Shown here in pieces: positions 967 through 58,624 of a stretch of 64,000 nt of DNA. Within the stretch, counting starts at the first letter, position 1, and the number at the start of each line of letters is the position of its first letter. Under the pieces are notes generated by a model. It made no database searches and was not told the DNA's origin. It worked only from the letters and a program-made list of their open reading frames with translations. Position numbers and translations under genes: made by a program. This stretch comes from Chiloscyllium plagiosum (Eukaryota). The DNA lies in contig NC_057737.1 of the NCBI RefSeq assembly GCF_004010195.1, positions 19,876,327 to 19,940,326 of the forward strand. The letters are read 5' to 3'.

Positions 967-1720
967 CACCCTTGATGCCATAATATTTGCATTCTTCTCT
1001 TAACTTGCTCGTCAGTTAATGGCACATTCAGAAACTCATGACAAACACCGTAGATTCCTGTGATTTAATTGGTGAATCATGGCTGATTATAGATCTCATC
1101 TAAACTCCACTTTCCTGTCTGTTTCCTACCATAAACCTTGATTTCCTGTCTATCAAAACATCTATCGAACCCAACCTTGAATAAAACCAGTGACCCAGCT
1201 TCTAATTCTATCTGGGGAAGAGAAGTTCACAGACTGATGATCCTCTGAGAGGGGAAAAACTTCTCCTCTCCTCTGTCTTAAAAAGGTGACCTCTTATTCT
1301 TAAACTGTACCCCATTGTTCTGGTCTCCCCTGAGAGAGGATACATCCTCCAGATATCTCCCTATCAAGTTCCTTCAAAATGTAATATATTCCAATAAGAT
1401 CACATTGCATTATTCTAAACTCCAAAAGGTTTAAGCCCAACATGTTCAACCTTTCTTCATAAGGAGAGCCCTTCATTTCGTGAATAAGTCAAGTGAAATT
1501 TCTCTGAACTGCTTTTCTACCTTTTTCGAATAAGAACACCAAGACTGTACTTTAGATCCAGTCTCAAAAGCTCTGTACAGATGCAGTAAAACCTTTCTAC
1601 CTTTATGTTCTATTTCCCTTGCAATAAATACCAACATTACATCTGCCATCCTAATTATTTGCGATGCTGCATGCTAGTTGTGTGATGATTCTGTTCACTG
1701 AGCCGGGAATTTGTGTTGCA

Positions 1721-1754
1721 GACGTTTCGTCCCCTGTCTAGGTGACATCCTCAG
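1721..1754 (-). ncRNA. Minimal type I hammerhead ribozyme motif (intact core)
   Basis: rc = CTGAGGA T GTC A CCT AGAC AGG G GAC GAAACGTC, flanked by GCA/TGC (stem I). Confidence 0.75.
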
Positions 1755-2089
1755 TGCTTGGGAGCCTCCTGTGAAGCGCTTCTGTGATCTTTCCTCCGGC
1801 ATTTGTAGTGGTTTGAATCTGCTGCTTCCGATTGTCAGTTCCAACTGTCCGTTGCAATGATCGGTATATTGGGGACGAAACGTCTGCAACACAAATTCCC
1901 AGCTCGGTGAACAGAACCACAACAACGAGCACCCGAGCTACAAATCTTCTAATAAGCACATCGATCTGGATCCTATATACCGACCACTGCAACGGACAGC
2001 TGGAACTGACAACCGGAAGCGGCAGATTCAAACCACTACAAATGCCGGAGGAAAGATCACAGAAGCGCTTCACAGGAGGCTCCCAAGCA

Positions 2090-2123
2090 CTGAGAATGTC
2101 ACCTAGACAGGGGACGAAACGTC
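2090..2123 (+). ncRNA. Minimal hammerhead motif with G8->A core mutation
   Basis: CTGAGAA TGTCACCTAGACAGGGGAC GAAACGTC; differs from the sister copy at the conserved G of CUGAnGA. Confidence 0.65.
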
Positions 2124-2525
2124 TGCACCAGAAATTTCCAGCTCGGCGAACAGAACCACAACAACGAGCACCTGAGCTACAAATCTTCTCTCAAACTTTG
2201 AGTTGTGTGATGATTCATGTACCAGGACACCAAGATCTCTGTGCACTTCGTGTTCCGCAATCACACAAGCACTGATCTATACAGTAATCCTAGAAGCAGC
2301 AGTGCTAACCACTGAGCCACCTTGCTGTCCCATCTTCTGAAGTAACCTTTAATGTGGTACCATAACAAATGCCTTATGGAAATCCAATAAGGCCACAACA
2401 ACAGGTTCCCCTTTATCCACTTTGTTTGATATTTCCTCAAAGTACACTAAATGTTTAGTTAAACATGATTTCTCTTTCAGAAAATCATGTTATCTCAACA
2501 TGCCACCATTTTATCTTGCTAACTG

Positions 2526-2829
2526 TTTAGATTAGATTAGATTAGATTACAGTGTGAAAACAGGCCCTTCGGCCCAACAAGTCCACACCGCCCCACCGAA
2601 GCACAACCCACCCATACCCCTACATTTACCCCTTATCTAACACTACGGGCAACTTAGCATGGCCAATTCACCTGAGCTGCACATCTTTGGCCTGTGGGAG
2701 GAAACCGGAGCACCCGGAGGAAACCCACGCAGACACGGGGAGAATGTGCAAACTCCACACAGTCAGTCGCCTGAGGCGGGAATTGAACCCGGGTCTCTGG
2801 CGCTGTGAGGCAGCGGTGCTAACCACTGT
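2526..2829 (-). mobile_element. HE1-type V-SINE, young copy
   Basis: CpG-rich V-domain and tRNA head, (ATTAG)n tail at 2526-2549. Confidence 0.88.
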
Positions 2830-3210
2830 TCTTGTATAATCTCTATAATAATGGATTCTAACAATTTCTCGGTGACAGATATAAGGCTAATTGACCTGCT
2901 TCCAGCCAGGCTCCTTTCTTGAAAATGGTTTTAGATTTGTAATTTCCAAATTCACTGGCACTATTCTAGAAAGTATTTTGGGGAATTCTCACCAGGAAAA
3001 TACATTGCTTTGAAGACATTGGCTTGCATTGTGGAGGATATAGAATTATAGCACATGCATTAAATAAAAGATGTCAAGTAAGCTTGTTTCATTCCAATAA
3101 TTTAATTTCCAAATGTAATACACTCAAAGTAACTTGAACTAACAATGGGGAATTCTGGATCACTAATTGTCAGGAATTTATTTGAATTGAGTACTGAGTT
3201 GTGAGTTCAC

Positions 3211-3298
3211 AGGTCACTGGACCCAAAACGTTAACTCTGATTTCTCTCCACAGATGCTGCCAGACCTGCTGAGCTTTTCCAGCAATTTCTGTTTTTGT
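3211..3298 (+). mobile_element. PLE terminal fragment with truncated hammerhead
   Basis: AGGTCACTGGACCC AAAACGTT followed by CAGATGCTGCCAGACCTGCTGAGCTTTTCCAGCA; related to 36110-36300. Confidence 0.55.
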
Positions 3299-4302: not shown

Positions 4303-4309
4303 GTGGCTT

Positions 4310-4665: not shown

Positions 4666-4786
4666 AAGAGAAAATTATATGTTTCTGCACCCGAGTGAAT
4701 GTGAGTAATGTGAATTTAGTTTCGAAGTGCTCTGGCTACATTTATTGATAAAGAATATCTGGGGTCATTTCCATTCTTCCCCTGCT

Positions 4787-5915: not shown

Positions 5916-7589
5916 TTCGTTATCTCATGGAATTGCTCAGGAGGTTGTGATTAAAGCCTTTGGTTCTTCTTTTCCAAGGAATGAGAAATGGTTAACAAAT
6001 TCTATGTCAGCACTTTTAAAGAAAAAGGAATTAATAACTGTTTCAGTGTCATAAAGAGATGCACAAGTAATGAATTGTAGTATAAAATATGATGATTGCT
6101 GAAAAAAAGATACGTGCTGTCAAATGTTTTTGTCTTGTACTCATCAGGATAGAATAGCAAAAATGCCAAATCCCAAAAGAAACAAGAATTTATACTGTAT
6201 GAGAAGAGGGTTCTAAATGGTAGCATGTCTTAGCATTCTAGCTATGTCATATCAAGGAAGGAAGCCAGCCTAGGGCATTGGAGGATGCGAGATTAGCTGG
6301 GTGTTATGGCTATGCCTATTTTTATAGACAGGAAGTATGTGCCAAAGTAAGCTTTTGAATTTATTATATCTGGTTTATTGGAGTTCATTTTATATAAAGG
6401 ACTCAAACTCATACATATGAGCCAGATCTATTTAGTTGAGAGTCGGGGCATTTAGAAGTGTAATGACATCATGTTCATCATGACCTATCAGGCAACCTTT
6501 TTAATGTTAAACAAAAGAATAACACAACCTTCCAAAGCACTGGAATCATCCAAGATTGCCATGCTGCCATGTTGTGTAGAGAACATTCAAACTAAACTAC
6601 AGTGCACTTGTGCATATTGGTGATTTGTTTCCTACGATGCAACTTTCTTTGCAATGCAGTTATTTCAGCAAGCTGAAAGAGCTGAAATAATAGATTAAGG
6701 GTCAACTTTATGAATAAGCACAAATCCAAATCACTCAGCATGTCTTCCAAAAACCACACACAATCTGTTTTGAATGCAGCTAGATAGTGAGGCAACTTTT
6801 AACTGAGAAGCAGCTTATAAGCAATCAGCCTTTAAGTTGAATTGTTACACTGAGAATAGAACTCTGTGCCTGACCATAAATGGACAAATGCAGAATGCTG
6901 CGACCAGCAGATTAAATTTGACAGAATGGGAGTGCCTCGGTAAATCTAAATGTGGGAATGTCACTGACCTAGTAATTTACTCTCTTCAAGGGGCTACATA
7001 AATGCAAATTGTTGTTAAACTTGTGAGTGAAAACGTATTGCATTCTGATCAAAACTTCCCACCCACTGGAGGTGCTGAAACACCTTCATTTTGTGTCACC
7101 AGATCCTCCGTGTCTGCCACAGTTTGTTTAATTCAGGGAGTTAGTAGCTTCATGCCACAAGGTCTTTCACCCTTCCATCACGTTTTCTTCGAGAGCTGAA
7201 GCTAACAGTGTTGAAGGAAAGTTCAGAGTTGCCAATTTACTCTGTTCACAAGTAAACCTTAAATACTACTTGTGTACTTCCCAAATTTCCTTAGAAATTA
7301 TATTGTACGATTGATTCAAATGCAAACCAAAAATGTCAGTGTATATGACAACTGAATTGTATTGGAACAATTAGGTAAAGGTAAAGTTGCCACAGTCCCA
7401 GAGGACCATAAGGCTGCTCTCCCATTAGAGAGGGATGGTTGATGATGGCTTAACCTGTGGGCCACCAAGGTACAGGAAAGCAGAAAGCTTGAGAAAGTGG
7501 GATCTTCATTGTAACCTTATCCCCCATCTCTAACTCAGCTTTGCATTAGTTTTTATTTTCCATGTGCAATACTGTGGGAGATTGACTAC

Positions 7590-7725: not shown

Positions 7726-7996
7726 ATGACATTTTGTAGACTCTGTAGTTGAGTAATTTTGAATTGAATTTACTGTTGTAAATTAGGTACAATAACTTAT
7801 TAACAATTTTGTAGAGTGTGCACTTCCTATAGATGCTAACTCGTGTCACAATTTCCGATATATTTTTCTAAACTCCTAATGCTATAAAACATCTCATGAG
7901 CAATGCCATGGAAGACCAACTGGTGTTTGAAAATATGAGGAATTATATGCATAGTTTGTTTTTTTGTTCTGAATATATCTTTTGTTTCTGTTTCAG

Positions 7997-8191
7997 CCTT
8001 TGAACAGGGTCATTGCTATGAGCCATTCATTAAGTATGGAAATTTCACAACGGGTGATGCATCATATCAAGTGGGAACTGTGGCTGAGTTTTCATGTGAT
8101 CCGGGGTACACCCTGGAACAAGGGTCCATGATTATAGAATGTGTGGACATCCGGGACCCCCAGTGGAATGAGACTGAGCCAGCCTGCAGAG
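7997..8191 (+). CDS. SEZ6: Seizure protein 6 homolog, internal exon encoding a sushi/CCP domain
   Basis: Acceptor TTTGTTTCTGTTTCAG| and donor |GTAAGG; 195 bp, phase 1-1. Reads (A)FEQGHCYEPFIKYGNFTTGDASYQVGTVAEFSCDPGYTLEQGSMIIECVDIRDPQWNETEPACR, matching recalled vertebrate SEZ6 (HCYEPFVKYGNF...CDPGYTLEQGSIIIECVD..DPQWNETEPACR). Missed by the ORF track. Confidence 0.93.
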
Positions 8192-11029: not shown

Positions 11030-13560
11030 CATATGTTTTGTTGCATATCTGGCACCATAGTGAAGGACAGAGACTGGGGTATAAGCTATTTTAGGTGTTA
11101 TATTATGCAATCAGAGGAAACTAATTAATAATTTCATTCTAAAAGAACTTTTAGGGAAGTGCAATCATAGAATGCTGGAATTTTTAATTAAGTTTGGAAG
11201 CTATGTCATTCAAAACTAGGGTCTTAAATCTGAAGGAAGAAAACGATATAGGCCTGAGGATCAAGTTGGCCGGTGGTGGATTGAGAAATTAAAAGATGCA
11301 ATAAAAGACAGACTATGGCTAGTACTTAAAGAATTAGTACACTGTTTAAAACAAGCATACGTTGCTTCAGAACACAAATGAAAGGAAAAGTGTTTTAACC
11401 CTGGTTAGAAAATGAAAAGATAAATTGTTTTCGATCAAAGAAGCAAGCTGACAAATTTACCAAAAAAGTAGCAAGCCTGAGGATTGGGAGCATTTAGAAG
11501 TTAACTCATGAGAACCATGAAACTGAAAAAAAAGGGAAAATAAAATGTGAATGTAAGCTAGCAAGAAACATTTAAAATTGGATTGTACAAGCTTCTATAG
11601 GATGTAACAGAAATAAATTAACAAAGACAAATTTGGGTCCATTACAGGAGAATTTATGATGGTCACAGGGAAATGGTGGAAAATATAAATAATTACTTTG
11701 TGCCTGTCTTTATGGAGGTAGGAATAAGAAATCTTTCAGAAATAATAGATATCCAAGGGACTAGTGAGAATGAGGAACTGAAATAAATTAGCATTCATAT
11801 GAAATGTAGTATTAGATTAATTAATGGGACTGAACATTGAGAAATCCCCAGGATAGGTAATCTGCAGCCCAGAATATGGTGCTATAGAGATGGTGGATAC
11901 ATTGGTGGTCATCTTTCAAAATTCTATAGATGTTGAAGTGGTATGTGCAGGAGAAAGCTGGGAAGGAGAAACTCGGAAACTACAGTCTTGATTGTCTGAT
12001 GGCAGTAGTAGGGTAATACTAGCATGGATTATGAAGGATGTGATAACTCAGAACATAGAAAGTAACAATCCAATTATGTGGAGCCAACACGGATTTACAA
12101 AGGGGAAATCATTTTTAACATTTTCTGAGTACGTTACTAACAGAGTAGCTAAGGGGAACCAGAGTACTGATTTTCAGAAGGCTCTGAGCAAGGTCCCACA
12201 CAGGAGGCTAGTAATCAAAACTGGAGCGCATTCGATTAGGAGTAACATAGAATAGGAATGAATGGGTCAGTTTAAAGTTGTCAGGCTGTAAGTAGGAGGG
12301 TACTGCAAGGATCAGTGCTTGAGCCCTAAATATTCATAGGCAAAAGTGAGGACTGCAGATGTTGGCAACCAGAGTTTAGATCAGAGTGGTGCTGGAAAAG
12401 CACAGCAGGTCAGGCAGCATCCAAGGAGCAGGAAAATCGATGTTTCGGGCAAAAGCCCTTCATCAGGAATAGAGGCTGGAAGCCTCCAGGCTGGAGAGAG
12501 ACTTGCCAGACCTGCTGTGCTTTTCCAGCACCACTCTGATCTAAACCCTACATATTTCAATGATCAACAAATGTGATACTTCCAAATTTGTGGATGGCAT
12601 AAAATGAGATGGAAGTATATTTTATGAGGATGGTGCAAGGAGGCTTCAAGGGGATTTAGAACATTACAACGCAGTGCAGGCCCTTCAGCCCTCGATGTTG
12701 CGCTGGGACTTGGCGCGTGGGATTTGAACATGGCAGATGGAATACAATGTGGATAGCTGTGAGATTGTGAGATTATCCACTTTGATAGGAAAACAAAGGT
12801 GCAGAGTATTCCTTAAATTGTAAAAAAAAATTGGAAAGCGTAGATGTTCAAAGAGAGCTGGGTTTCCTTTTTTATAAGTACTTAAGTCGAGCATGCAGGT
12901 GCAATAAGCAATTAGGAAGGCAAATGATATGCTGGAAATTATTGCAAGAAGGTCTGCATGCAGGAGCAATGATTGATTGCTTCAATTCTGTAAGTCTTAG
13001 TGAGACTGGAGTATTATGTGCAGTTTTAGTCTCCTTACGTGAAGAAGGATAAAGTTTCCACAGAGGCAATGCATTGGAGGTTCATCAGACTAATTCTTGG
13101 CTTGGGAGGATTGTCCTGAGAGGGGCAATTGGGAAGACTGGGCCTGTAGTCTCTAGATTTCAGCAGAATGAGAGATGATCTCACTGAAATTAACAAAGTT
13201 CTTAAAGTGGTTGACGGCATAAATGCAGAAAGGATGTTTTCCCTGGCTAGGGGCAAGAACAATGGTTAGAACCAAGAAAAATAATCTCAGAATGAGGAAC
13301 AAGTCATTTGGAAAGAGGAAGAGCAATGTTGTCACTCAGAGAGTGATGAATCTTTAGAATTCTATACTCCAGAGGACTCTGGAAGCTCAGGCATTGAGTA
13401 TGGTCAAGATAGTGATTGATTGATCTCTGGATACCATTGACATCAAAGGGATAAGGGGGTGGCCTGAGAAAATGGTCTTGAGATCAATGATCAGCCATGA
13501 TTTGGAAGTGGAGCAGGCTTGAAGGGTTAAATGGTGTAGTCTTGCCCCTATTTTCTTGCT
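11030..13560 (+). mobile_element. Decayed CR1 ORF2 (linker + RT + 3' UTR)
   Basis: SQHGFTKGKS, DFQKALSKVPHRRL, VLQGSVL motifs, many stops; interrupted by a PLE at ~12341-12546 and a short CR1 tail at ~12660-12712. Confidence 0.8.
12341..12546 (-). mobile_element. PLE 3'-end element with partial inverted repeat and hammerhead motif (12439-12466)
   Basis: rc CTGATGA A GGGC TTTT GCCC GAAACATC; 12374-12411 is inverted at 12509-12546. Confidence 0.75.
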
Positions 13561-14820: not shown

Positions 14821-15024
14821 CGAGACGTGTGGTGCTGGAAAAGCACAGCCAGTCAGGCAGCATCGAGGAGCAGGCAAGTCAACATTTCAAGTATGAGAAT
14901 GAAGAGTTTATATTCGAAGCGTCGACTCTCCTGCTCCTCCCATGCTACCTGACCGGCTGTGCTTTTCCAGCACCACACTGTTTGACTCTGATCTCCAGCA
15001 TCTGCAGTCCTCACTTTCTCCCGG
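14821..15024 (+). mobile_element. Older palindromic PLE terminal element with decayed hammerheads
   Basis: Inverted arms (GTGTGGTGCTGGAAAAGCACAGCC / GGCTGTGCTTTTCCAGCACCACAC); TSD ATAGATTC(A/G)GAT at 14809-14820 and 15025-15036. Confidence 0.7.
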
Positions 15025-15546: not shown

Positions 15547-17980
15547 TTTTTTTTATGACAACAGAAAATATACCCACCACACCCCAGCTCACAAGTATGT
15601 TATTTTCTTTGTTCACCATTTAGTGCACTCTTTTCCACTCTCACCCTATTCAGAGATTCTCATCACAGTTTACTCATTCACTATAGCTCCAGACATCCAG
15701 TTTTGTTTCACAATTAGAGTGGTAACACATCCCCAACATAGATCCAGGATGAAATGCTGATCTGCAACATACGCGCACCAACTGTAAAATCTCATGATGG
15801 TTAGATGGAGTAGTTTCTTGCAGCTCAGGGAATTGTAGCCATCATTGTTGATTAACTTGTCAATCAACCTGCAGTTGGAATATGGGAATAGGAGTTGGAA
15901 ATCATGTACTGAAACCTCCTGTAATACAGTTGTAGCCAAGTTGTGGGAAATTGTAGTTGTATAAAATTGAGATCAATAATGCCCACAATGTCAAGAATGT
16001 TTGTTATAATCATTGAGGACAGAAAGCTGCATTCAAAGTTAATGGGATGTCGTTTGTTTGTCATCACCTTTGTCTCCTGCAAGAGTTCTATCCCAAGTAT
16101 CAAATAGAAGCCTGCAGAGAAGTGGTGACATTAAAATAAGCAGAATGATCCCTAGGTAACCAAACAACAGCACAGGAAGTTTAAATCACTGCTGTGTTTT
16201 GCTTACAGGTATGGAGACTGGCTGTAAAATGGTGACGGCACAGACACTGTATGAATGGTTGACTGATCAGCACAGGTGGATGCTGGAACATATAAGGTTT
16301 TAGGTATATGTATTAATTCGGAAGTGAGAAATTAGAAGGTGGTTTAAGTAGAAGGTTGCTTAGGAGCAGAGCGTGTTTTGCATGGCTGGGTAGAAAGCAT
16401 CCACAAGGCTAAAGTTGAGCTTGTGGATTTGTCATGGGAAGACCTGGAGAATAAATTCACATTTTACACTCACCATTGACTTTTCCTGGAAAATTATTGA
16501 CAGAAGAGATGTTATTCACTTGGGATGGGAGGTATCAAAAAGGAAAGAGTGTGTGACTTTTATCACCAATTGTCTTTTAACATATGGTTTCCCATAATTT
16601 TTGACATTGGCTGTGCAGAGAAAAGATACAAATAAAGGTTAAGTTCTTCTTGTAACAGGGGAAACCTAAAAGTCAATGTGCAGGCCCCTCTTGTACAATT
16701 AAATAAAGGAGGGAGATCAGAATTTGAAGAGTTGTATATTATGGTAAAGCAACGATGAACATAAATCAGACAAAATAACAAGAGTCCTTTTGCTAGATGT
16801 CTTCTTCCCCTCCTCTGTTTAATTGTAACAGCTATTTATTCTGTAGGCTGTTCCTTGGACCTAGGTTTACAGTCAAATATATTGTAAACTTTGTTGCTGA
16901 ATGGTCCTTTTATTAATTCAATGTTTTATTGAAATTCTCATGTCAAAAAGAATTAGGTCGGAATAAGTGATTAGTGATCAGACTTCTACTTCATGCTAAA
17001 AATAATACTTGAATAAAAAACAACTCTTTTGAGTTCCCTAGGTCACTTTATCGCTAGTAGATTGTGTGTGTGAGAGAAGAATTTAAAAACACACTGTGCA
17101 TGAACCCCAAAGCTTACAAAACAGTTTATTGTGTCCATACTGTTTTGAAGCCTCTTATCAAGTGTAACAGCCCTTCTCTCTCCATCCAGTGAATTCCCTG
17201 CGATTATCTGCCTGACCTGACCTGGGCTGTCCCCACGTTAATGTTCCTGAGACACAAAAAACCAGGAAAATGAAGACTGGACCTAAGAATTAGCATTCAA
17301 AAGATGCAGCTATGCCATGTCCTTGCTATCCAATAAATCCCCCTCTACCCCTAAATGTTTCCCTAAAGAAATGGACTAGGGAAGGTGCTCCAAGAGTTGT
17401 GTTGTTCTTTAACTGATTACCTACAGATGGTTGAGACTACCTTGTCCACCCTGAACAGTTTCTGTTTTGTTAGTGCATTCCACCAACAAAATCCCACATC
17501 AGAATCTCATGCTGCAGTTGTGCATTGACTTCCAACTATTCTCTATGAAGACCTGGATTGGCTTTGACTGAAGCGATCTAACTTACCATTCTGGTAACTG
17601 TCATATTTAGCATAGGTAGTCAGTGTAAAACATAATGCCTTTTGTTCACAAATGGTTGTTGCAACATTTCGAGCTAAGTGGTTAGCAAAGCATTTGGACT
17701 GTCACTTCCGTATCTGATTACAGACAAGAGAAACCAATTAAAAGAGGAATAAGAATATAGGCAAATAGATTTTAAAAATTATGGTTAAGAGTTTCTAAAT
17801 TTCCATTCTGAAGATCATTTCAAATAATTGACAGTGAGGAGTTGCAAGTCATTTTGGTAATGGTACCAAATAGTTAAGGAGTGGCTTCATGGTTTTACCT
17901 TGTTAAGAGAGTGTCTAATGTCAGGAATTTATTTTATAGTTGCTTAAAGATACTTGACAGTGTTTTGTTTCAACTCACAG

Positions 17981-18119
17981 CTGTCTGCAGTGGGGAGATT
18001 ACAGACTCTGCCGGAGTTGTGCTGTCTCCCAATTGGCCTGAAGCATATGACAAGGGTCAGGACTGCATTTGGGGAATACACGTGGAGGAAGACAAACGAA
18101 TCATGCTGGACCTCCAGGT
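17981..18119 (+). CDS. SEZ6: Seizure protein 6 homolog, internal exon encoding the N-terminal half of a CUB domain
   Basis: Acceptor TTTTGTTTCAACTCACAG|; in frame with the previous exon (G+CT = Ala). Reads AVCSGEITDSAGVVLSPNWPEAYDKGQDCIWGIHVEEDKRIMLDLQV; donor |GTAAGT at 18120. Confidence 0.93.
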
Positions 18120-18489
18120 GTAAGTGCAAAATAGAGCAAAATACAGTGTGCACTGAGCGTCCCATACTTATAATCTACGTAATTTTCTATTAGATTTCTT
18201 TTTTTACTTCCTTGTTTCTGTTTTGCTGAAAGTATTGGCAGGATTTTCGCATCACCTCAGTCAAATGAACCTTTTATTGTGAACCATGACATGACTGTGA
18301 CTGAAACAAGTGGCTTGGGAATTGCAAATTCAGCTTCATCAGATCTAGATGGAGCCTACACAAGCTGAATGCTAATGGAAGCTGTTAACTATTGAGATTT
18401 GTGAGCACTTTGAATACAGACTAAACTTGTTAACCTGTGATATGCTGTGGACTTCAGAATTTTACAGCCCTTTCCACTTCCCCTTCCTG

Positions 18490-25990: not shown

Positions 25991-26841
25991 TAATAATGTT
26001 ATTTCTGACATATGAACTGCTTCATCACTGTCATTAATTAAATTTGCTGAGCAAGCTGAAAGTCATGGGAATGCAAAGACAATGTGAGGAATGGATAAAA
26101 GTTACAGAAGATCACATTGCTCAGAAAAGTGAGATGTTTGATTACAAGAGGAATGGAGTCGAACAATGCTTACATATGCGCTTCGGATTCTGAGACCAAA
26201 TGTTTGAACAGTGCTGAGAGAGAGGAAACAAATACTATTATTGCACTTAGAAGTTTCCAGAGGAGTTTTGATCACTTCTGCAGACAGGCAAGCAACCGTA
26301 GCTAACAATTTCTGATTATGTGCCGGTGGTGAAGCTCCTGACTGACCAGGATTTATCCATGAGGAAAGTAGTGACTGTACAGTGGCATTTTACTGCAGTG
26401 TGAATCCACGAGGATCATCTCCACAATCCTGACAGGGGTTTACATCCAAGCAGTAGTGAATTGTGCACTTGACAAAGTATACAATGCTACAAGCAGTAAG
26501 GAGACAGAATACCCTGAGGCCTTGTTCATCGTAGTCGGTGACCTCAGCAGGCCAACCTCAAGAATGTGTTACCAGATATCGTCAACACATCTCCTGCCCC
26601 ACTAGAGTCCCAAATGTCCTTGGCCATTGCTATACAAACATAAAAGATGCTTAACCGCTGCAATCCCATCCACATTTTGGAAAATCAGATAATGACGCTG
26701 TGCTCCTCCTCCTGGCTCACAGAAATTGAACAATGAGGACACAGTACAGGATGTGTTTGTCTGAGACAGCGAAAGAGCTGTGCAAAGTTAAAAATCACAC
26801 AACACCAGGTTATAGTCCAACAGGTTTAATTGGAAGCACAC

Positions 26842-26870
26842 TAGCTTTCGGAGCGACGCTCCTTCATCAG
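26842..26870 (-). ncRNA. Minimal hammerhead motif (intact)
   Basis: rc CTGATGA A GGAGC GTC GCTCC GAAAGCTA, with CAC/GTG stem I. Confidence 0.78.
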
Positions 26871-26883
26871 GTGATTGAATCAC

Positions 26884-26912
26884 CTGATGAAGGAGCGTCA
26901 CTCCGAAAGCTA
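26884..26912 (+). ncRNA. Minimal hammerhead motif (core intact, one stem II mismatch)
   Basis: CTGATGA A GGAG CGTCA CTCC GAAAGCTA. Confidence 0.72.
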
Positions 26913-28061
26913 GTGTGCTTCCAATTAAACCTGTTGGACTATAACCTGGTGTTGTGTGATTTTTAACTTTGTACACCCCAGTCCAACACCGGAATCTCCG
27001 AATAAGGGCTGTGGGACTGCTTAGAGCAGGTGAACTGTTCCATATTCATGAACTCAGCAGCCAACCTAAACAAGTTTGTCACTACTGTTACAGACATTAT
27101 TAGTAAGTGTGTAGAAGGCTGTGTGCCGAAGAAGTAAGTCCGAATGCTTCCCTAACAGAAACCATGGATGAGGCAGGAATGAAGTCCAGGTCTGAGGTGT
27201 ACATGTCGGGTAACCCTGACCTTTACAAGAAATCAAGGTACGACCTTTGTAAGGCCATCAGAGACGCCAAGGGGCAATACCATACTAAGCTGAAGACCCA
27301 GACCAAAAATACAGACACCTGTCGTTATTGGCAAGGCTTATACAACATGATGGGATACAAATCCAAATCGAACAGAATTGCAGGCAAAAGTACATCCCTA
27401 CAAAATGAGCTGAATGCAATCTACACTTGCTTTGAACAGAAGGTCAGTGAAACAATGTCACCTATCCCATCAGCCTCGGCTGCACCTGTACCCACGGTCA
27501 ACACCACAGACGTTCGATCAGCCTTCTTGTGGATGAGCTCAGTGACTGACCCAAATGGAGACCCCAGATCCTGTGTATGCCAGCTGCTTGGAGTATTCGC
27601 AGAAATTTTTAATCTCTCCTTACTACGATATGAAGTCCCTACCTGTTTCAAGAAAACTACCATCATCCCAGTGCCAAAGAAAAATCATGCCTCAATGACT
27701 ACTGCCTGATGGCTCTGACCTCCATAATTAGGAAATGCTGCGAGAGGTTAGTCATGGCTCACACCAACTCCAGCCTACCAAATTGCCTTGATATTTTGCA
27801 AATCGCCTACTGGTGTAACAGATCATAGCAGATGCCATTTCCCTGGCTCTACACCCATCTCTGGAATGTCTGACTAACCTGCACCAAGCTCCTCCTAAAT
27901 GACAGTAGTCCCACCATCAACACCATAATGCCAAACAAACCCACCTTAACAAATTCCTTAACAATTCCAAACAAACCCACTTTAAGACCTAGGTCTCGGC
28001 ACCCCCCCTCAGTAACTGAATCATTGACTTCCTGACCCATAAAATGCAATCAGTAGGAATG

Positions 28062-32679: not shown

Positions 32680-33010
32680 GCAAAAAATCTGAAATAAAAA
32701 TAAATAACAGTGACGTACAAAAGGTATGGCAGAAGAGAGAAACAGAGTTAACATTTCGATTTTGAAAGGATTCTTCTTCAGACTGTCTACTAATTGTTTA
32801 ACAAATAACTCTTCTCTGCATTTGTTTCTTTTTTAGATTTTCCCTCCTCTCACCTTTTTTTTAATCATATTCTACTGATGTCATATCCATCTTTGAAGAA
32901 TTATAAAATCAAATTGTTGACTTCACCTCACAGACAATGACAAGCCTATTCTATGTGGAGCCAATTTGCTCTCTTCTTATTTGCAGCACTTGCAGTATTT
33001 TACTTTTCAT
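32680..33010. mobile_element. Old tail-out PLE terminal pair with decayed hammerhead (32750-32781, -)
   Basis: rc CTGAAGAAGAATC...TCGAAATGTT on the left; right end ATTTGCAGCACTTGCAGTATTTTACTTT resembles PLE termini. Confidence 0.45.
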
Positions 33011-34514: not shown

Positions 34515-36068
34515 AGTGAGTTTTGAGAAGATTTGTAGCTCAGGTTGAGGTTCTGGATGTAGGTTTCTTTGCTGAGCTAGAAGGTTCATTTTCAGATATT
34601 TTGTCACCATACTAGGTAACGTCATCAGTGAGCCTCCAGATGAAGCCCTGGTGGTATGGCCTGCTTTCTATTTATGTACTTAGGTTTCCTTGGATTGGTA
34701 ATGTCATTTCTGGTGGTGACATCATTTTCTGTAGTGATGTCAATTCCTGTCCTTTTTCTCAGGGGATGGTAAATAGGATCCAAGTCAATGTGTTTGTTGA
34801 TAGAGTTCCGGTTGGAATGCCATGCTTCTTGGAATTCTCGTGCAAGTCACTGTTTGGCTTGTCCTAGTATAGATGTGCTGTCCCAGTCGAAGTGGTGTCC
34901 TTCCTCATCTGTATGTAAGGATACTAGTGAGAGGGAATTGTGTCTTTCTGTGGCTAGTTGATGTTCATGTACCCTGGTGGCTAGTTTTCTGCCTGTTTGT
35001 CCAATGTAGTGATTGTTACAGGTCTTACAAGATATTTTGTAAATAACATTAGTTTTGCTTGTTGTCTGTATGGGGTCTTTCAAGTTCATTAGCTGCTGTT
35101 TTAGTGTGTTGGTGGGTTTGTGGGCTGCCATGATGTCAAGAGGTCTGAGTAATCTGGCAGTCATTTCTGAGATGTCTTTGATGTAGGGGAGAGTGGCTAG
35201 GGTTTCTGGACGTGTTTTGTCTGCTTGTTTGGGTTTGTGCTGGGAAATCTGTGGGGGACTGTGTTCACTGGGTATCTGTTCTTCTTGAATACACTGTTTT
35301 ATGCTCTTCATAGTTTCTCTGTGCAGCAGGTGGCTCTTTGAAATAATCTTCTAATGCAGCTTCATTTATAGGTCTTGGGATGATTGCTTCTGTAGTTCAG
35401 TATTTGGTCTGTAGGTGTTGTTTTCCTGTAGATACTGGTTTGAAGTTCCCCATTGGCTGTTTGCTCTACTGTGACATCTAGGAATGGCAGTTTGTTGTTA
35501 TTTTCCTCCTCTTTAGTGAAGTATTCCACAAACCCACCAACACACTAAAACAGCAGCTAATGAACTTGAAAGAGCCCATATAGACGACAAGCAAAACTAT
35601 TGTCATTTACAAAATACCTTATAAGACCTGTAACAATCACTACATTGGACAAACAGGCAGAAAACTAGCCACCAGGATACATGAACATCAACTAGCCACA
35701 AAAAGGCACGATCCATTCTCACTAGTATCCTTACATACAGCTGAGGAAGGACACCACTTCAATTGGGACAACACATCCATCCTAGGACAAGTCAAACAGA
35801 GACACGCACGAGAATTCCAAGAGGCACGTTATTCCAACTGGAACTCTATCAACAAACATGGATCCCATTTACCATCCCCTGAGAAAAAGAACAGGAAATG
35901 AAATCATGACAGGAAATGACATCACCAACCCAAGGCAATCTAAACACGTAAATAAAAAGTGGATCGTACCACAAGTGCTTCATTTGGAGGCTCAATAATG
36001 ATGTTACCAAATATGGTGACGAAACATCTGAAAACAAACCATCCAGCTCAGCGAGCAAACCTACATTC
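34515..36068 (-). mobile_element. Penelope/Poseidon-type PLE, 5'-truncated, with inverted duplicate of the GIY-YIG/terminal region
   Basis: Minus arm 34515-35520: RT C-terminus (EEENNNKLPFLDV...TSIYRK...QILNYRSNHP) and GIY-YIG (VIYKISCKTCNNHYIGQTGRKLATRVHEH...SINKHIDLDPIY). Plus arm 35526-36068 repeats the GIY-YIG and terminus. 12-bp TSD ATAGCCAGCATT (34503-34514, 36069-36080). Decayed hammerheads at 34595-34628(-) and 35995-36028(+). Confidence 0.92.
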
Positions 36069-36109
36069 ATAGCCAGCATTGTATACTCTAAGACAAAGAC
36101 AGATGGTCC

Positions 36110-36300
36110 TAGAGAAATGTGGCTAGTCTGGCAGCATATGTAGAGAGAAAATTTTTGAGTCCTGTGACCCTTTGTCAGAACTGTTCTGAAGAAGGGTCAC
36201 TGAACTTGAAACATTAACTCGGTTTATTCTGTCTATAGGTCTGCTTAGGTTCTCCATCATTTTTGCTTTGTTTTAGATTTCCAGCATCATTTCTTTGTTT
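36110..36300 (+). mobile_element. Older palindromic PLE terminal element with two decayed hammerheads
   Basis: Centre CAGAAC-T-GTTCTG at 36182; + CTGAAGAAGGGTCACTGAACTTGAAACATT (36186-36215); - CTGACAAAGGGTCACAGGACTCAAAA. Confidence 0.6.
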
Positions 36301-41790: not shown

Positions 41791-42167
41791 GGAGAAAGTG
41801 AGGTCTGCAGATGCTGGAGATCAAAGTTGAAACTTTATTGCTGGAACAGCACAGCAGGTCAGGCAGCATCCAGGGAACAGGAGATTCGACGTTTCGGGCA
41901 CAGGCCCTTCTTCAGGAATGAGCAGAGAGTGTTCAGCAGGAGAAGATAAAAGGTAGGGAGGAGGGACTTGGAGGAGGGGCGTTGGAAATGTGATAGGTGG
42001 AAAGAGGTCAAGGTGAGGGTGATAGGTCGGAGTAGGATGGAGGCGGAGAGGTCAAGAAGAAGACTGCAGGTCAGGAAGGCGGTGCCGGGCTGGAGGGATC
42101 CGGCTGAGACAAGGTGGGGGGAGGGGGGATGAAGAAACTGGTGAAGTCCAAGTTCATCCCCTGCGGT
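41791..42167 (-). mobile_element. Neptune-type PLE 3' end (non-inverted, young)
   Basis: Perfect 14-bp TSD TGGAGCTCAGTACA (41777-41790, 42168-42181). rc starts QPQGMNLDFTSF (GIY-YIG C-terminus) and ends with the same terminus as the 29460 and 30674 elements. Confidence 0.85.
41888..41915 (-). ncRNA. Minimal hammerhead motif (intact core)
   Basis: rc CTGAAGA A GGGC CTGT GCCC GAAACGTC. Confidence 0.75.
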
Positions 42168-43742: not shown

Positions 43743-43769
43743 AAAAGTCACACAACACCAAGTTATAGT
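43743..43769 (-). mobile_element. 27-bp PLE terminal micro-insertion
   Basis: AAAAGTCACACAACACCAAGTTATAGT matches the arm of 26783/49948; perfect 15-bp duplication CTCAGTTACATGGTT (43728-43742, 43770-43784). Confidence 0.75.
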
Positions 43770-46949: not shown

Positions 46950-47500
46950 TCTGTGTACATTCAATATGATCATGATTGACCTAACTTATGGCCTCAACTC
47001 CACTTTCATGCCTAACCCCAATAACCTTTGTTTCCTTTGTTAGCCACAGATCTATCTACCTCTGCCTTAAAAATATTCATTGACATTTCCCCCACTGACC
47101 TCTGGAAAAGAAAGTGTTCCAAAGCCTCACAACCCTCAGAGAAAAACATATTCTCCTCATCTCAATCCTAAATGGGAGACTCCTTAATTTTACATTGTGG
47201 TCCCCAGTTCTAGTTGTTGCCACAAGGAGGAGCACTCCTTCGGCATCAATACTGTCAAGTCCCTTCAAGATCTTATATATTTTCACAAGATGACCTCTCA
47301 TGGTTTTAAACTTCAATGCACACAGGTCCAGGCTTAGCCACATCTCTTTACGGGATAACCTTTTATCCCATGAATCAGGCAAGTGGCTCTCTCTAAACTA
47401 TTTCTAATGCAATGCTGTTCCTTTCTTTAAAAGGTAGGCCAAAACTGTACTCCAGAGGTCATCTCACCAATGCATCTGTATAAAAACACTACTGCTTTCG
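46950..47500 (-). mobile_element. CR1 3' fragment
   Basis: rc MRGHLVKIYKILKGLDSID...FSLRVVRLWN. Confidence 0.75.
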
Positions 47501-47504
47501 TATG

Positions 47505-47910
47505 TTGAAAAAAAAAACTTTTTGAAGATTTCAGCTTTCACTCATCAGGACTGATCAGCAGTGCCAATTTTAAGGGGAAAATCAACTATTTCAACTCAGC
47601 AAAATAGTTGACAATAACAGCTTTTTGCTTGTTAATTTCTCAGGGCAATGCCTTGATCAATCAGAATCAATCTGCTTGATTTAAATAAAAAAATAAAGTT
47701 TGGCAATTAGCTGTCAACCATTACTAACTGGTGCAATTTCTATGCCAACACTTTTACCAATCAAACCACTTATCAACCAATCTGCACTCACCTGTCCGGT
47801 GGAATAAATTGTTAGTTTTCCTCCTAAGTTGACCTGATGAGTTCAAGATGAAAAGCTTTGTCAAAGATTGTCTCTTATTTTTTCAGAAATACTTGCATTC
47901 TGTACTATCA
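47505..47910. mobile_element. Tail-out PLE-like terminal pair of a further family with ultra-short hammerheads
   Basis: - motif CTGATGAGTGAAAGCTGAAATCTTC (47524-47548) and + motif CTGATGA GTTCAAGAT GAAAAGCTTT (47834-47859), divergently oriented. Confidence 0.5.
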
Positions 47911-49948
47911 AGTGGCTGTTCCTTCTTTTGTAACTTCGGGCAACAGAAAATCCCAGAGACAGGTCTGAATAGATGAGAAGGACAAGTCCCAGATTGACAG
48001 CAGCCCACAGTCATTTTGTAGAGCTTGTCTGGCATAAGCAGAAGATTTTCTTTTTCTCCTTAGGACCAATATTTGAGTGGACAGCTTCTGTTCCTTTAAA
48101 GACAACTGGTTAAGCAAATCAAAGGCCAGAATTGAATATTGCCAGCTTTGCCTGGTTTAAACTTGGCCAAGTGGAAAATGGACATTGGAGCTCATTTTAG
48201 GTTTGCCTTAAGGGAAAAACAATGTATTTTAGGAGTGTGATTCTCACACAGACCAGGCAAAGGGCAATGCATTGTGAACTGGTTATCACTGTTTCTCATC
48301 CATATCAATAAAACACTGCAGTAATGTTAAAACTAGGCAATTGTTCCTCTGCACCTCCCCCATCCACCCAACCCCTGCATTAGAATTGACATCTTAATTC
48401 TGAGAAGACAGTTCAATATTGCTTCTACCCTGACCTGGACTCAAGGATAAATGAAGATGTCTGCATTTTGCTGCATTCAATAATGGAATGGTCATCCACT
48501 TTTGCAATTGGTTTGTTTCTCACCAGCCTCATGCACCTCTCCTTACCGTGTTTCAACCCACAGATTAACACATTCCACAACAGTGAGAGTCTTTCCATTT
48601 GGCTACCATACCAGCCGTCCTTGAGTTGTGGAGATTTACATACTATGCACGCATGCACACCCACTGGCAGCTGAGCTGAAATTTATTCTGGGCAAGTTTC
48701 TGTCAACTGACAGATGTGAGGTGGCTTTGATTTGCAGAATACAAACTAAAGTCAAGATTTTGTCTCAGGAGCTGAAGAGGCCATTCAAATTCCGCAATTC
48801 TCTTTCGCTGTGGTTCCCAATTCTCCAAAAATAACCTCTTCTCCAGATTTACTGCAAAACATAAGCCTTTAAACTTTGAAGTTCATTGGTAGGGCATCTA
48901 TGCACTTAAGCAGCCCAGCAGCATGCACATACTAACGCAGATCCAGAAACTTTGGAAAGCTGAAAGAAAATAGAACAAGGACAAAGAAGCTTTTCCTTCA
49001 AGGTGAAGATTTGGAAAGTCAGGCTTTATGTGATTGCTACACAAATCACATTTAGTAAATAATATCAAGCCAACCAGTTACATATCAAACAACTCTTTCT
49101 TGTTAAACAAACATATAATCATCAATTTAAGTCCTCTTTTTAATAAAAAAACAAATTATTGAACAGTTTAAAGGTGATAATTAAAGCAGAAGGAGAGGTT
49201 TGGGGTGGTTAAACCAAATGCAAGTTCACAGTGAAGTATTTTCTCATTTCCCTATTTATAACAACACTGAAGTTTCCAACTTGTAGAAACTAATCCTATC
49301 TTCATTTCTAGTGATTTACGTAAGTCTGAGACATCAATCAAGTTTGATGAAGGGAAAAAGGGTTTGACAGATCTTTGAGTTATTTGGGACATCTTACTCC
49401 ATGGGGGAGCATGAGAGGCAGCTTTGTAATAAATCAATTATTTTTGTGTTATCACATCCAAATGTCTGTTTCCCTGTTGTCTCTGTGGATAGCGGGTGCA
49501 TATACTGTGGAGTCATGTTTATATTAGGCTTTATAGCAATCGCAGGAAGGAGCTGAAATGGACTGCCTCATGTTGTGCCCAAGCAAAGTGCCAAGTGACT
49601 TGCTCATATTTTGCAGCCGGTGACAAGTGTATGTGATGTCAAAGTGAGTTGGAAAGATCCAGAATGAAGTTAGTGTCATCAGAATTAAAGCTGTTACCTA
49701 TTTAGTCAACCTTGAAGCTCTATGATATTTCCTGAAACATTATTTTTGATACAGCATCCTCCTTCTTACCTTCTTCACCTTTTTTTTCCATTTCTAAGTT
49801 CAGGATTTATCCTCATTGGGCTTTTCCAGACTTGTGCTAACTGCTTTCACTGTCACCAGGGATCCTTGCCATGTGGTTTTGTATCAAGCACAGGAGAAAT
49901 TTAAAATACTTAGACTCTTATGGCACCTTGCTAATCTTGAAAGAATAT

Positions 49949-50058
49949 ACAAAGTTAAAAATCACACAACACCAGGTTATAGTCCAATCTGTTGGACTAT
50001 AACCTGGTGTTGTGTGATTTTTAACTTTGTACACCCCAGTCCAACACTGGCATCTCCA
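49949..50058 (+). mobile_element. Palindromic PLE terminal element lacking the hammerheads
   Basis: Perfect 40-bp arms (49948-49987, 49992-50031), 4-nt loop, 27-nt tail. TSD AATCTTGAAAGA(A/G)TAT (49933-49948, 50059-50074). Confidence 0.9.
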
Positions 50059-54600: not shown

Positions 54601-55744
54601 ACCAACCAATAGTAAGATGAATGAAATTCTCTCTGTCTGTGAAGAAAGAGACCTTTCCACAATCGAAGACAATCGAAACTACATTATTTAGCCTCTCCAG
54701 TGGACAAGAGGGAACAAAAATGGAGACAAAAGCTCAGTTGGGATTCCCACAGTCTCCAAGGGCAGTTTTTAAAACATACGCTCTGTTCTCCTGTAGTTAT
54801 TCACCCAGGATTCTGAATTTGGCCTGTCTCAAGGTGATGGGGTGCTTGGGGCAGGTTGGGTGAGTGGGTCACGTCTGGGGGACATGGGTCCGTTGAAGGA
54901 GGGTGGGCTCCTGCATGGGGATGTACAGCATCCAGAGGTGGGATGGTTGTTGGGACCAGGGGTTTCAGGCTGCGGATTTTCATCAGAAAATTCAGATTCT
55001 CACAGTGTGTGCTGCACAGGGATTCCAAATGGTCCCAACGCACATCTCTGGTTTACCCTGTTCCTACAACTCTGACAATCAGAATAACTTGGTGAAGAAC
55101 TTAATCGACACTGGGAAGGTAAAGTGTCTAAATGCTTTTCTGTTGAAGGTTGTCAAAGGCAAAGCAGTTGTCTGCTATCAGGAAGACTCAGATATAAATT
55201 AGCCTGTGCTTCCACGGGCTGTGAAGACCTATTTCTCCATGGAACTTGTGAAAGCCACTGGCTACCCTTTGGACACATTGAAAACTAGCCAGCTTTGTGG
55301 CCTTATTGGGACTTCACAGCAATAAAATCCCCTTAATTGGAATACTGAGATAGAAACTGAGATTGCATTGCATCCACCACACCTTCTGATATCCTCTGGA
55401 CTCACAGGAAGCAGCACCTGTTAAAATTAATTAGTGTAATGGGTGCAAGTTCACAGCTGATGTCCTGTAATCTGACTTTAATTTCTAGCAAGGTTTTTTT
55501 GATTTTTGATTTGAGGATAGGAACATCTTATGCTCTTTTAGGTATTAATTCTTCAGCTCAGCCCTATCCAATTTAGCCTTTGATCAATCCTTGGGTGATC
55601 TTCTATGACCTGGTTGCAGTCTATTTATGAAACTTGACAAGGTTCAAATGCCACCCGGATTGGGCATGATGTTGTGCACAGACTCACTGCTCACCAAAGC
55701 CAACATCAGGAGCACAGATTTATTTTCATATTCTGGCCCGACCA

Positions 55745-56070
55745 GCATAGCTTAGAATCCAAACAGTGTGGAAGCAGGCCATTCGGCCCATTGAGTCACA
55801 CTGACCCTCCAAAGAGCATACCCTATTCCTGTAACCCTACATTTCCCATGGCTAATCCATCTAGCCTGGACATCCCTCGACACTACGGGGCAATATAGCA
55901 TGGCCAATCTACTTAACCTGCACATCCTTGGACCGTGGGAGGAAAACAGAGCATCGGGAGGAAAGCCACGCAGACACTGGGAGAAGGTTCACACAGTCAT
56001 CAGATGTTGGAATCAAACCTGGGTCCCTGGCACTGTGAGGTAGCAGTGCTAACCAATGAGCCACTGTGCC
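55745..56070 (-). mobile_element. HE1-type V-SINE
   Basis: Head, V-domain and tail as in the other copies. Confidence 0.82.
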
Positions 56071-57789
56071 AGGGAACAGGTCTGCATGCTTTCTATCTAG
56101 TGAATCCAGCTTGAAAGGATCCATATGGGAATCAGATGAAAATGGATTAGATCAGCTCTAGTGAGCACTGTGGTTGGTCTGCTCTGTATCAACTCTCACA
56201 ACTGAGTGAGATACTAGAAATCACTGTTCTAACTGTGTCCCAGAGAAACAGTGGAATAGGAGAGTGCTTGCAATCTATTCTGTAGCAGAGAAAGAAAATG
56301 TGAATGCATTATATCAATGCACATTAGTTTGTAAAATAGGAGACCATTGGCTGAAGCCTGAGAGCAAGTTATAACAGGAGTTAAGAAGCAATTCCTGCGA
56401 TCAGAAGGGGAAGGATGAACCAAGGAGGACAAATGCAATAAGAAGACTGAAATTTGAAAATAATAGAAATGTTCATTCTGGAGCTGGAGGGAGGATGAAA
56501 AGCTAAAGTTCGTGCCCTCCAATAGGCAATAGCTCATTAAAGGAATTAATGAAATTTTGAAACTGGCTATGTGTGACTGATTTTTGAGTGTGAGCCCACA
56601 TCCTGTTTACTCGATGGTACACTGATAAAGGATTCCAGAGAGTGACTCAAACATAAAAGATGACCTGAGTTAGAGCTCTTGACAAAAATTAGTGACAATG
56701 CTGCTTTAGATCACGGCCATATTGATCTTGAAGTAACATTGATCCTGAGCTGCTACGACCTGTCTGCTAGTGGTACATGAAATACAGTTGCTTCAGCAAT
56801 GCTTTGGAATATATATTAACAGAACCTGTCTAATATTTTAGCTACAATAGCACAGAAGAATGCAAGCTTCTGAAACTCGCTTATGTGCCTCTGGCATCAA
56901 GCAGATATCTTTTCTTTGGTTGATAAGGTTTTATAGAAACGAAATGTCACCATTACAAAAACATGTACTTATTGCAGCCTACTGCCATACATTAGCCCCC
57001 TAATGAATTCTGTGAGACACATTTTCAATATCGAAGACATAAAGTGGCAGTGGTTTGTGATGCTGAATATCTCATTTGGTTTGTGGGCAGCCACAAGAAT
57101 CCGAAAAGTAGACAGTGGTGTTTATGGAGTGTGTGTTATGACATGCTGTCAGGGTAATTAATATCCTGGGGCTTTTTTATGATATAAGTGAAACAGTGGT
57201 AACAGGCCACAGAGTTGGCTGATATACGATGGTTTTTCATTAATTTTGAAGGGAGGGATTTTGACATTACATTCGGCATCTAATCAAAAGTATGCAGTGT
57301 TTCCTGACATCTTGTTCTTGGTAGGCATCAAGCCGAGGTAAATTATAGGAACAAAGCAGGCGTGCGTTGATAGCATAGGCAATTTTTCATCACAAAATGG
57401 AGCTGAAGATTACAGTATGAAAATTTATTTTTGTTCAAATTGGTGACACCCTCTGTTTTTGACAGGATTTGTTGCAGCTGATATTATAATGTTGTCAAGG
57501 TGACATTCAGTCGGTATGAGGCAGTTGTGCACAGAAGTGCCTTCCAGCGTCACTTTATATCAGAAATTTGTTCAACAAGGTCCAGGCTTAGCGGTCCCAG
57601 GATTGTGTCTATGCTGAGCAAACTGAAGATGCATTTTGCCTCTTGTGCGGCTGCCTCTATTGCACTAGGTGCTGATGCAAAATGCCATCTGCACGATGCA
57701 GTTACAGTTAGATACCTTGTACCAGCTTGCCATGCAGGAACCTGCTTAAGGTTAACTGTTCTGTAATAGCTAGCCGTGAGCATGTTCCA

Positions 57790-58085
57790 AAGTAGATGGA
57801 CAGAGTAGATGATGAGAAACTTGTAACAGGATTGATTATCAAAACACACAGATTCAAAGGAAGCATGTGCAAGATAAGAAAGACAGCATTTTCATACAGT
57901 GAGCAGTTAGGGTCTGCAATGTACTGCCTAGAAGTGTGGGGGAGACAGTTTCATCGTGCAAGAGAGCATTGGATGATTATTTAACTAGAAATAATGTTAC
58001 AGGAAAGAAAATGGGATTGGGACCTGGGTCAGACACAATGGGCTAAATGGCCTCCTTCTACACCATAACAACGGTGTGATTCTGG
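57790..58085 (+). mobile_element. CR1 3' fragment
   Basis: MDRVDDEKL...KTHRFK... plus 3' UTR. Confidence 0.55.
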
Positions 58086-58624
58086 AATGATGTGGAGGTG
58101 CTGGTGTTGGACTGGGGGTGGACTATGTTAAAAATCACACAACACCAGGTTATAGTCCAACAGGTTTATTTGGAAGCACTAGCTTTCAGAGTGCTGCTCC
58201 TTGGTCAGGTAGCTGGTGGGGCAGGATAATCTGACACAGAATTTATAGTAAAAGGTCAAAGTGTCAAACAACTGATGCAATGTACTGAACAAACCTAGAT
58301 TGCTGTTAAGTCTTTAATCACCTCGTATGGGGATGCAGGTTTCAATTGATTAATATGTAAATCCCAGAACTTCTTTAAAGTCACATTCCTGAGATAACTT
58401 AAGGTTTTATAAAAAGTGATATCTCAGCTGAGACAATGCATTAAAGGAGTGAGGTTAGAGTCTGTCTGTATCCCAATCTTGACTCAGACTGGTTCGATTT
58501 CCAAAGTAGGAATTCATAAAATGTTATATGGATCGACTGCCTGCAGATTGTGTGCTTTTTGAACAAAATAGAATGTACCTGCAAATACAAATCAGCAAAT
58601 GCAAGTTCACCTCATAGACTTATA

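Follow-up and report, generated by a model that had tools for sequence, protein, structure and literature searches.

Predicted minimal hammerhead ribozymes in decayed ends of Penelope-like elements at the SEZ6 locus of the shark Chiloscyllium plagiosum

Introduction

Penelope-like elements (PLEs) carry minimal type I hammerhead ribozymes in their pseudo-long terminal repeats (pseudo-LTRs). Those described by Cervera and De la Pena in 2014 (PMC4209133) lack loop 3, are palindromic at positions 15.2-16.2, bear an extra base after A9 and a G10.1-C11.1 pair, fall into several families per genome, belong to Poseidon and Neptune elements, and occur mostly solo or as opposite-strand pairs 100-700 bp apart. 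These properties are shared by the DNA analysed here, a stretch of 64,000 nucleotides of Chiloscyllium plagiosum (contig NC_057737.1, positions 19,876,327 to 19,940,326; the whole stretch is hereafter the window) within the SEZ6 gene, which a preliminary description made from the letters alone had singled out for its hammerhead motifs. We report that the window holds 5'-truncated, mostly decayed PLE ends of about six families (A to F), whose minimal type I hammerhead probably needed either a dimer or the element's protein to cut the parent RNA, a reading based on sequence to which we assign a probability of about 0.88. A class described in 2014 is thereby extended to shark families.

Further systems provide points of comparison. 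A review (PMC6765202) attributes to the small hammerheads a short palindromic stem III and cleavage as dimers, and the hammerhead of the Anolis Poseidon element PAc needed the protein of that element in order to cleave (Frangieh et al. 2024, PMC11167929). As described there, the PAc cut lies 26 bp from the start of the open reading frame (ORF) and reverse transcription starts 111-118 bp in; families A and B share with PAc an ORF start at the base of stem II and similar distances, and the window also shares its tail between two reverse transcription start sites and the extension of both strands, although PAc is an intact, tested element and the window copies are dead fragments. Endonuclease-bearing PLEs (Arkhipova et al. 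2013, PMC3846280; Craig et al. 2021, PMC8557442) resemble the copies here in their 5' truncation, adjacent inverted copies, head-to-head junctions, target duplications and a tail of 30-40 bp at one end; the window differs in that most units are only 100-225 bp long, many junctions fall where the ribozyme begins, at its front edge, and the duplications measure 11-18 bp as opposed to 8-10 bp in the rotifer examples. Finally, non-LTR retrozymes (Li et al. 2026, bioRxiv 10.64898/2026.07.22.740005) have in common with the window a type I hammerhead, an origin from pseudo-LTRs and a chondrichthyan host, but they are defined by two or more whole hammerheads in a head-to-tail arrangement, and self-comparison of the window revealed no such array.

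Results

Hammerhead motifs lie within PLE ends

Scanning for the core and stem II (CUGANGA, a stem of at least 3 pairs, GAAA) yielded 12 matches, compared with 2.55 +/- 1.6 (maximum 6) in 20 dinucleotide shuffles. Ten of these lie within PLE families that self-BLAST and nhmmer recovered independently, and the match at 11254 falls in no assigned family. The remaining match, at 1234, was rejected as a PLE hammerhead, being a chance match inside a remnant of a CR1-type long interspersed nuclear element (LINE); the same remnant draws the only Rfam hammerhead hit (Hammerhead_3, 1220-1265, 24.5 bits against a gathering score of 48.5). A full descriptor, composed after the motifs had been seen and comprising the core, 3 bp of stem II, the palindrome, H17 (the predicted cleavage nucleotide) and at least 2 bp of helix I, gave 7 matches versus a mean of 0.005 in 200 shuffles. 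The C3 core positions of these intact motifs are 1754 (-), 26870 (-), 26884 (+), 29551 (-), 30800 (-), 41915 (-) and 47834 (+). Allowing one mismatch proved too noisy (65 matches against 43 +/- 5 in shuffles). Homology, on the other hand, recovered 17 insertions of PLE ends from about six families, with 24 arms overlapping the ribozyme region. The core bases in type I order (CUGANGA ... GAAA ... UH) are complete (12/12) in 10 of these arms and at least 11/12 in 17, and 17 of the 24 fail the full descriptor. Many of the losses convert C-G to T-G or C-A, which would fit decay at CpG sites.

The preliminary description had counted more than 15 motifs from about five PLE families. The first number holds if decayed copies are included (the 17 arms with at least 11/12 core bases), not if the core must be complete (10) or the motif intact (7), and the presence of several families is confirmed, our count being about six. 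Its interpretation as minimal PLE hammerheads is supported, the motifs being of the published pseudo-LTR kind, as is the remark that stem II sequences differ between families yet still pair. The examples at 1721, 34595, 12439, 29524, 30773, 41888 and 26842 prove to be H17 positions of minus-strand motifs, and those at 36186, 47834 and 58208 are C3 positions. Several, however, are decayed: 34595 shows AAAA for GAAA and ATAT for ACGT, the palindrome reads ACAT at 12439 and 36186, the stem assigned to the GGGTC/GACCC type at 36186 lacks GACCC, and at 3211 the CUGANGA box is missing and GAAA is replaced by AAAA. The cleavage triplet given as GUC/CUA does not extend to families D and F, which carry U at position 17. 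That ordinary annotation would miss the motifs is true of Rfam, which recovered none of the 7 intact ones at E up to 10 and no type I hammerhead in the window.

Families and conservation of pairing

Families A and B are Poseidon-type and E is read as Neptune-type; C and D are likely Neptune-type, and F is unplaced. A and B are related (69% over 131 bases) and have a stem II of 6-7 bp; C has two subfamilies and a 3' part in common with D, and E has at least two subfamilies. Unlike the stem II of 7-8 bp given for Schistosoma in the cited account (PMC4209133), that of families C-E is 4-5 bp long and that of F only 2-3 bp. An unpaired base after A9 and the G10.1-C11.1 pair closing helix II are present in families A-E, with copies of D and F showing G-T at that pair; F has no extra base after A9. 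Helix III is replaced by a palindrome, which is ACGT, AGCT or AAGCTT in the 7 intact arms, ACAT or ATGT in decayed ones, and the six-base AAGCTT in family F, and which covaries between families (ACGT to AGCT to AAGCTT). When one best arm per family was compared (picked by us, and with A and B related), bases paired at the first three helix I positions in all 18 cases, and each position showed 3-4 different pair types. Both helix I and the palindrome lay outside the criteria of the core and stem II scan. Multi-family MAFFT alignments were out of register; the pairs were counted by anchor in scripts. In most family C arms helix I comprises only 2 contiguous pairs.

Protein ties to the parent elements

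Judging from protein matches, families A, B and E end in the GIY-YIG domain of an ORF containing reverse transcriptase (RT), followed by the pseudo-LTR. The protein remnant of family B spans the RT thumb and the GIY-YIG domain (Pfam E 0.001, below the cut-off), and its top matches come from carpet sharks. Family A retains the last residues of a B-type protein, and its AUG overlaps A9, placing the cut site at base 28 counted from the A of AUG and the end of the tail 105 nt on; family B ends 108 nt on and encodes a peptide similar to that of A. The family E copies at 58086 and 28062 preserve the C-terminus of proteins like P0147, which consists of RT, a CX4CX2C linker and the endonuclease; the linker region falls outside the window copy. 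A CX2-5CxxC linker before the endonuclease marks Neptune and Nematis elements according to PMC8557442. The preliminary description had tied each well-preserved family to a GIY-YIG C-terminus in a longer copy; this applies to the copies at 34515, 58087 and 28062 (14-19 residues) and also to that at 1692, but the copy at 41791 encodes only a 16-residue peptide (42121-42168), which matched none of the PLE proteins compared.

PLE endonuclease sequence was also observed in three annotated shark proteins, P0007, P0150 and P0151, which are isoforms from the genes MAP3K7, a NOXP20-like gene and USP8; it represents either exonised PLE pieces or annotation artefacts.

Insertion layout

Ten of the 17 insertions are head-to-head pairs (Table 1), and in all eight well-aligned pairs (A, B, four of C and two of E) the 3' end of one arm extends 28-39 nt beyond that of the other, forming a tail. 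Target duplications with 11-18 matches flank 8 of the 17 insertions, as opposed to 1 of 200 random pairs, with boundaries set by eye. The duplications at 1676-1691 and 42168-42181 resemble element sequence at the junction, a microhomology likewise noted by eye. Such an arrangement could be explained by target-primed reverse transcription from one of two start sites ~30 nt apart near the 3' end, with head-to-head pairs arising when both cut DNA ends are primed; the template would probably be uncut RNA, because the arms run through the cut site. The best-preserved single copy (41791..42167) retains the whole 3' pseudo-LTR and 16 codons of a likely ORF end. In the long family E arm, a later LINE fragment (~58940-59589; weak zf-RVT match, 11-match target duplication) splits the GIY-YIG end and holds a 191-base N gap. 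Altogether, PLE remnants cover ~6.0 kb, or ~9% of the window by rough bounds.

Table 1. Window coordinates of PLE insertions, SEZ6 exons and copies of a tRNA-like short interspersed nuclear element (SINE)
Feature	Positions	Strand	Hammerhead	Other features
Family A (Poseidon-type), inverted	1692..2200	-/+		79% over 58 residues to P0004; 16-bp target duplication at 1676 and 2201
Family A, inverted arm	1692-1870	-	intact, C3 1754	
Family A, short direct 3' piece	1871-1950		begins inside stem II; lacks CUGANGA box	partial tandem
Family A, main arm	1951-2200	+	C3 2090, G8 to A	GIY-YIG C-terminus; tail
Family D, single arm	3210..3296	+	begins in stem II; lacks CUGANGA box; G12 to A	
Family F, single arm	6095..6170	-	decayed, C3 6147, core 11/12	E 0.006; absent from the preliminary description
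Family C (subfamily C2), inverted	12341..12549	long arm -	C3 12466, core 12/12, palindrome ACAT	10-match duplication, borderline
Family C2, short arm	12504-12549	+	begins past ribozyme	
Family C, old inverted	14821..15024		both decayed (8/12, 6/12)	11-match duplication
Family E, inverted	26783..27003	-/+	C3 26870 (-) and 26884 (+), both intact	junction 6-7 nt before C3
Family E (divergent subfamily), single arm	28062..28640	-	C3 28145, G12 to A	GIY-YIG last residues 28576-28632
Family C, inverted	29456..29671	-/+	- arm intact, C3 29551; + arm begins +7, lacks CUGA	18-match duplication
Family C, inverted	30674..30897	-/+	- arm intact, C3 30800; + arm begins +2, lacks C3	14-bp duplication
Family D-like, old single arm	32715..32790	-	C3 32781, core 12/12, stems decayed	weak match, E 0.19
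Family B (Poseidon-type), inverted	34515..36066	-/+		84% to P0001; 13-match duplication
Family B, long arm	34515-35520	-	C3 34628, G12 to A	RT thumb and GIY-YIG
Family B, short arm	35521-36066	+	C3 35995, core 10/12	
Family D, old inverted	36092..36300	-/+	C3 36178 (-) and 36186 (+), both decayed	
Family C, single arm	41791..42167	-	best preserved; C3 41915, cut site 41888, 4-bp helix I	14-bp duplication
Family E, 27-bp fragment	43743..43769	-	none	15-bp target duplication; smallest PLE insertion seen
Family F, old inverted pair	47500..47895	-/+	+ arm intact, C3 47834, 5-bp helix I, AAGCTT; - arm decayed, C3 47548	
Family E, inverted	49948..50058		ends short of ribozyme	15-match duplication
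Family E (Neptune-type), long arm	58086..59690	-	C3 58208, G8 changed	GIY-YIG C-terminus; 66% to P0147
SEZ6 exon (Sushi region)	7996..8190	+		95% to shark SEZ6 P0016; normal splice sites
SEZ6 exon (CUB region)	17980..18120	+		100% to P0016; normal splice sites
tRNA-like SINE copies	639-967, 2536-2830, 4041-4308, 29760-29943, 39695-40006			
tRNA-like SINE copies (continued)	44149-44356, 45833-46145, 51306-51629, 55750-56071, 61270-61321			

Several observations weigh against reading these copies as PLE ends with a dimer- or protein-dependent hammerhead. Nine of the 17 insertions have no convincing target duplication, families D and F show no ORF remnant within the window, and the endonuclease tie of family C is putative, coming from the likeness of its 16-residue peptide to a GIY-YIG end. 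Stem II overlaps the ORF start in A and B, and coding constraint could therefore account for some of its conservation. In family C the most frequent variant carries a U-U mismatch in helix I (41885), a form found in ~75% of reads of run X21 and making up 68% and 24% of the depth in X1 and X9, all runs of related organisms. In addition, the U17 of families D and F is a nucleotide at which hammerheads cut poorly, and the modelled tandem-dimer fold was less stable than the minimum-energy fold in 10 of 10 arms tried. Small PLE hammerhead variants are reportedly able to cleave as dimers, according to the title of an article by Lunse, Weinberg and Breaker (RNA Biol 14:1499). A weak dimer fold accords with the low activity recorded in PMC4209133 and with the protein requirement recorded for the anole element in PMC11167929; given that requirement, a lack of cleavage in monomers or dimers would not tell against the interpretation in the preliminary description.

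Reads and abundance

In two runs of related organisms, 56,914 and 54,684 contigs align to a 441-base family C stretch at 80% likeness, numbers that point to a large and varied family and are not to be taken as copy number. Family C motif patterns had no match in metagenome or viral contigs. In X21, a poly(A) single-cell library of a related organism and as such no test of cleavage, 3,350 of 12,955,460 records aligned to 41760-42200; they come preferentially from the ribozyme-sense strand, assuming the usual library direction. A further run, X22, yielded 0 reads on this stretch and carries no weight. Among 40 of the 88 variant places, changes affect loop II and helix I and no core base, which we do not put forward as a claim on core conservation. 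Single contigs of related organisms display head-to-tail and skipped joints at 41917-41922 and 41867-41871, including very short ribozyme repeats, and are too few to count.

The 7 intact motifs in 64 kb amount to ~110 per Mb, a figure from a single window and thus a weak base for extrapolation. If genome-wide, this density would top the totals given in PMC4209133, ~4,000 hammerheads in the coelacanth and ~9,000 in Xenopus. Shark names were not found in the abstract, results, discussion or two supplementary files of that paper, file 1 of which may list sharks. Taken with the tens of thousands of family C contigs, the motif density makes the very large hammerhead population proposed in the preliminary description likely.

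The SEZ6 setting and other repeats

The assignment to SEZ6 was correct, with two exons matching shark SEZ6 (Table 1). Comparison with P0016 found no SEZ6 exon across 18121-64000 (45.9 kb), which is either a long intron or places the next exon beyond the window; because P0016 matched no other exon, we read the window outside 7996-8190 and 17980-18120 as intron. The G+C content is 40.6% and the N count 191.

Of the other repeats, a long CR1-type LINE remnant at 20932-24600 (+) includes an ORF1 piece resembling an SGNH esterase (PF13472, E 7e-12) and RT, and seven further pieces of the 3' part of this LINE occur elsewhere in the window. The ~310-bp tRNA-like SINE is present in ten copies, 7 of them antisense to SEZ6. 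The labels CR1 and tRNA-like SINE are presumptive.

The hammerheads at 6147, 12466, 28145, 32781, 41915 and 58208, which have at least 11/12 core bases and no inverted hammerhead partner, are all antisense to SEZ6 (6/6). We claim no strand bias of near-intact hammerheads, since 7 of 10 SINE copies, used as a control, are antisense too. The PLE palindromes draw weak Rfam microRNA matches below the gathering score (26826-26928, 29492-29607, 30750-30863 and 49945-50034), and are likely to prompt spurious microRNA calls or to yield double-stranded RNA within the pre-mRNA.

Probable passengers, proposed mobile hairpins and junctions near the ribozyme

A role for the motifs as intronic ribozymes, kept by the host and acting on SEZ6 pre-mRNA, could be argued from the two intact motifs on the SEZ6 sense strand (26884 and 47834). 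Within the whole inverted insertion, however, the predicted stem II probability of the plus arm is 0.0 in 6 of 6 folded, a set that includes both of these; folded alone, four plus arms reach 0.43-1.0, with the D and F arms remaining at 0.0. Together with the 5 of 7 intact motifs that are antisense to SEZ6 and the failure of most arms under the full descriptor, this makes host retention scarcely credible. Because the majority of the cores have acquired mutations, and because folding predicts that long hairpins trap the sense-strand arms of inverted pairs, the SEZ6 copies are likely passengers. Nor do the palindromes appear to form a separate non-autonomous family, similar to retrozymes or to miniature inverted-repeat transposable elements, that moves as a hairpin unit. 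Such a family might be expected from the five C and E palindromes of similar size (~200-225 bp), most with target duplications, and from the derivation of non-LTR retrozymes from pseudo-LTRs and their occurrence in one chondrichthyan (bioRxiv 10.64898/2026.07.22.740005). Yet the four family C palindromes have four distinct junctions (-37/+51, +4/+21, -3/+7 and -16/+2), indicating that each was built at insertion and not copied from one mobile hairpin, and self-comparison of the window shows no head-to-tail array with two whole hammerheads; we disfavour this family and regard it as very improbable.

The arm junctions may cluster at the ribozyme's front edge. Their midpoints fall in a 15-nt span around C3 in 5 of the 10 inverted insertions and in a 20-nt span in 6 (families C, D and E), and none of the 10 junctions is at the cut site. 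A scan statistic gave p 0.002-0.024 when the nulls were exponentials fitted to the data, rising to 0.05-0.19 with a steeper one, for midpoints set partly by eye (wholly so in D and F), a clustering window picked after looking, and n=10. No paper on PLE junction clustering at the hammerhead was found among the open-licence literature, and searches on shark PLEs likewise brought up none on the point. The clustering may mean that the RT stalls or jumps on meeting the folded ribozyme, that the transcript starts or is spliced at that point, or it may be chance. That the folded uncut ribozyme, possibly palindrome-paired to a second copy, halts or diverts the RT is suggested by the front-edge clustering with no junction at the cut site, and by a ~five-fold drop in family C RNA read depth from 41895-41909 to 41925-41939. 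The small post hoc sample and the higher p values under the steeper null speak against it; the depth drop is confounded, ~60% of the reads being of the C2 type, whose sequence departs from the reference immediately before helix I; and hammerhead mutants left the insertion products of the anole element unchanged in vitro (PMC11167929). We consider an RT block quite unlikely. A start of the template RNA just before the ribozyme, at an internal promoter or a splice junction, so that the copies are complete and not stalled, would produce the same clustering of 5' ends, and has precedents in PLE transcripts that start within the upstream pseudo-LTR (as reviewed in PMC6765202) and in a D. virilis intron that ends at the 5' end of helix I (an example from PMC4209133). 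Still, several arms begin inside the core or stem II (+2, +7, +21), others extend 37 to 892 nt upstream, and no pile of read ends is listed in X21, a poly(A) single-cell library being a poor test; we hold this explanation possible, if on the doubtful side.

Discussion

The copies in the SEZ6 window are best read as truncated PLE ends bearing a known class of hammerhead, and the surprise is small, since large multi-family sets have already been published for coelacanth and Xenopus. Their practical bearing is that these ribozymes go undetected by Rfam, in which the palindromes score weakly as microRNA hairpins; family F, moreover, offers a natural test of the minimum length of stem II.

What the PLE hammerhead does is described as still unclear in PMC8557442. 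A bolder proposal, which we think improbable, is that it serves more as an RNA clasp than as a cutter: two palindrome-paired uncut pseudo-LTR RNAs would be held in a dimeric RT-endonuclease, both DNA ends would be primed, and the two complementary DNAs would end at the ribozyme's front edge and be linked there. Shark genomes would then preserve a fossil record of this process, and their hammerhead population would far exceed all those published. Should junctions prove to cluster at the ribozyme genome-wide, sharks would offer the sample size needed to ask what part the ribozyme plays in retrotransposition.

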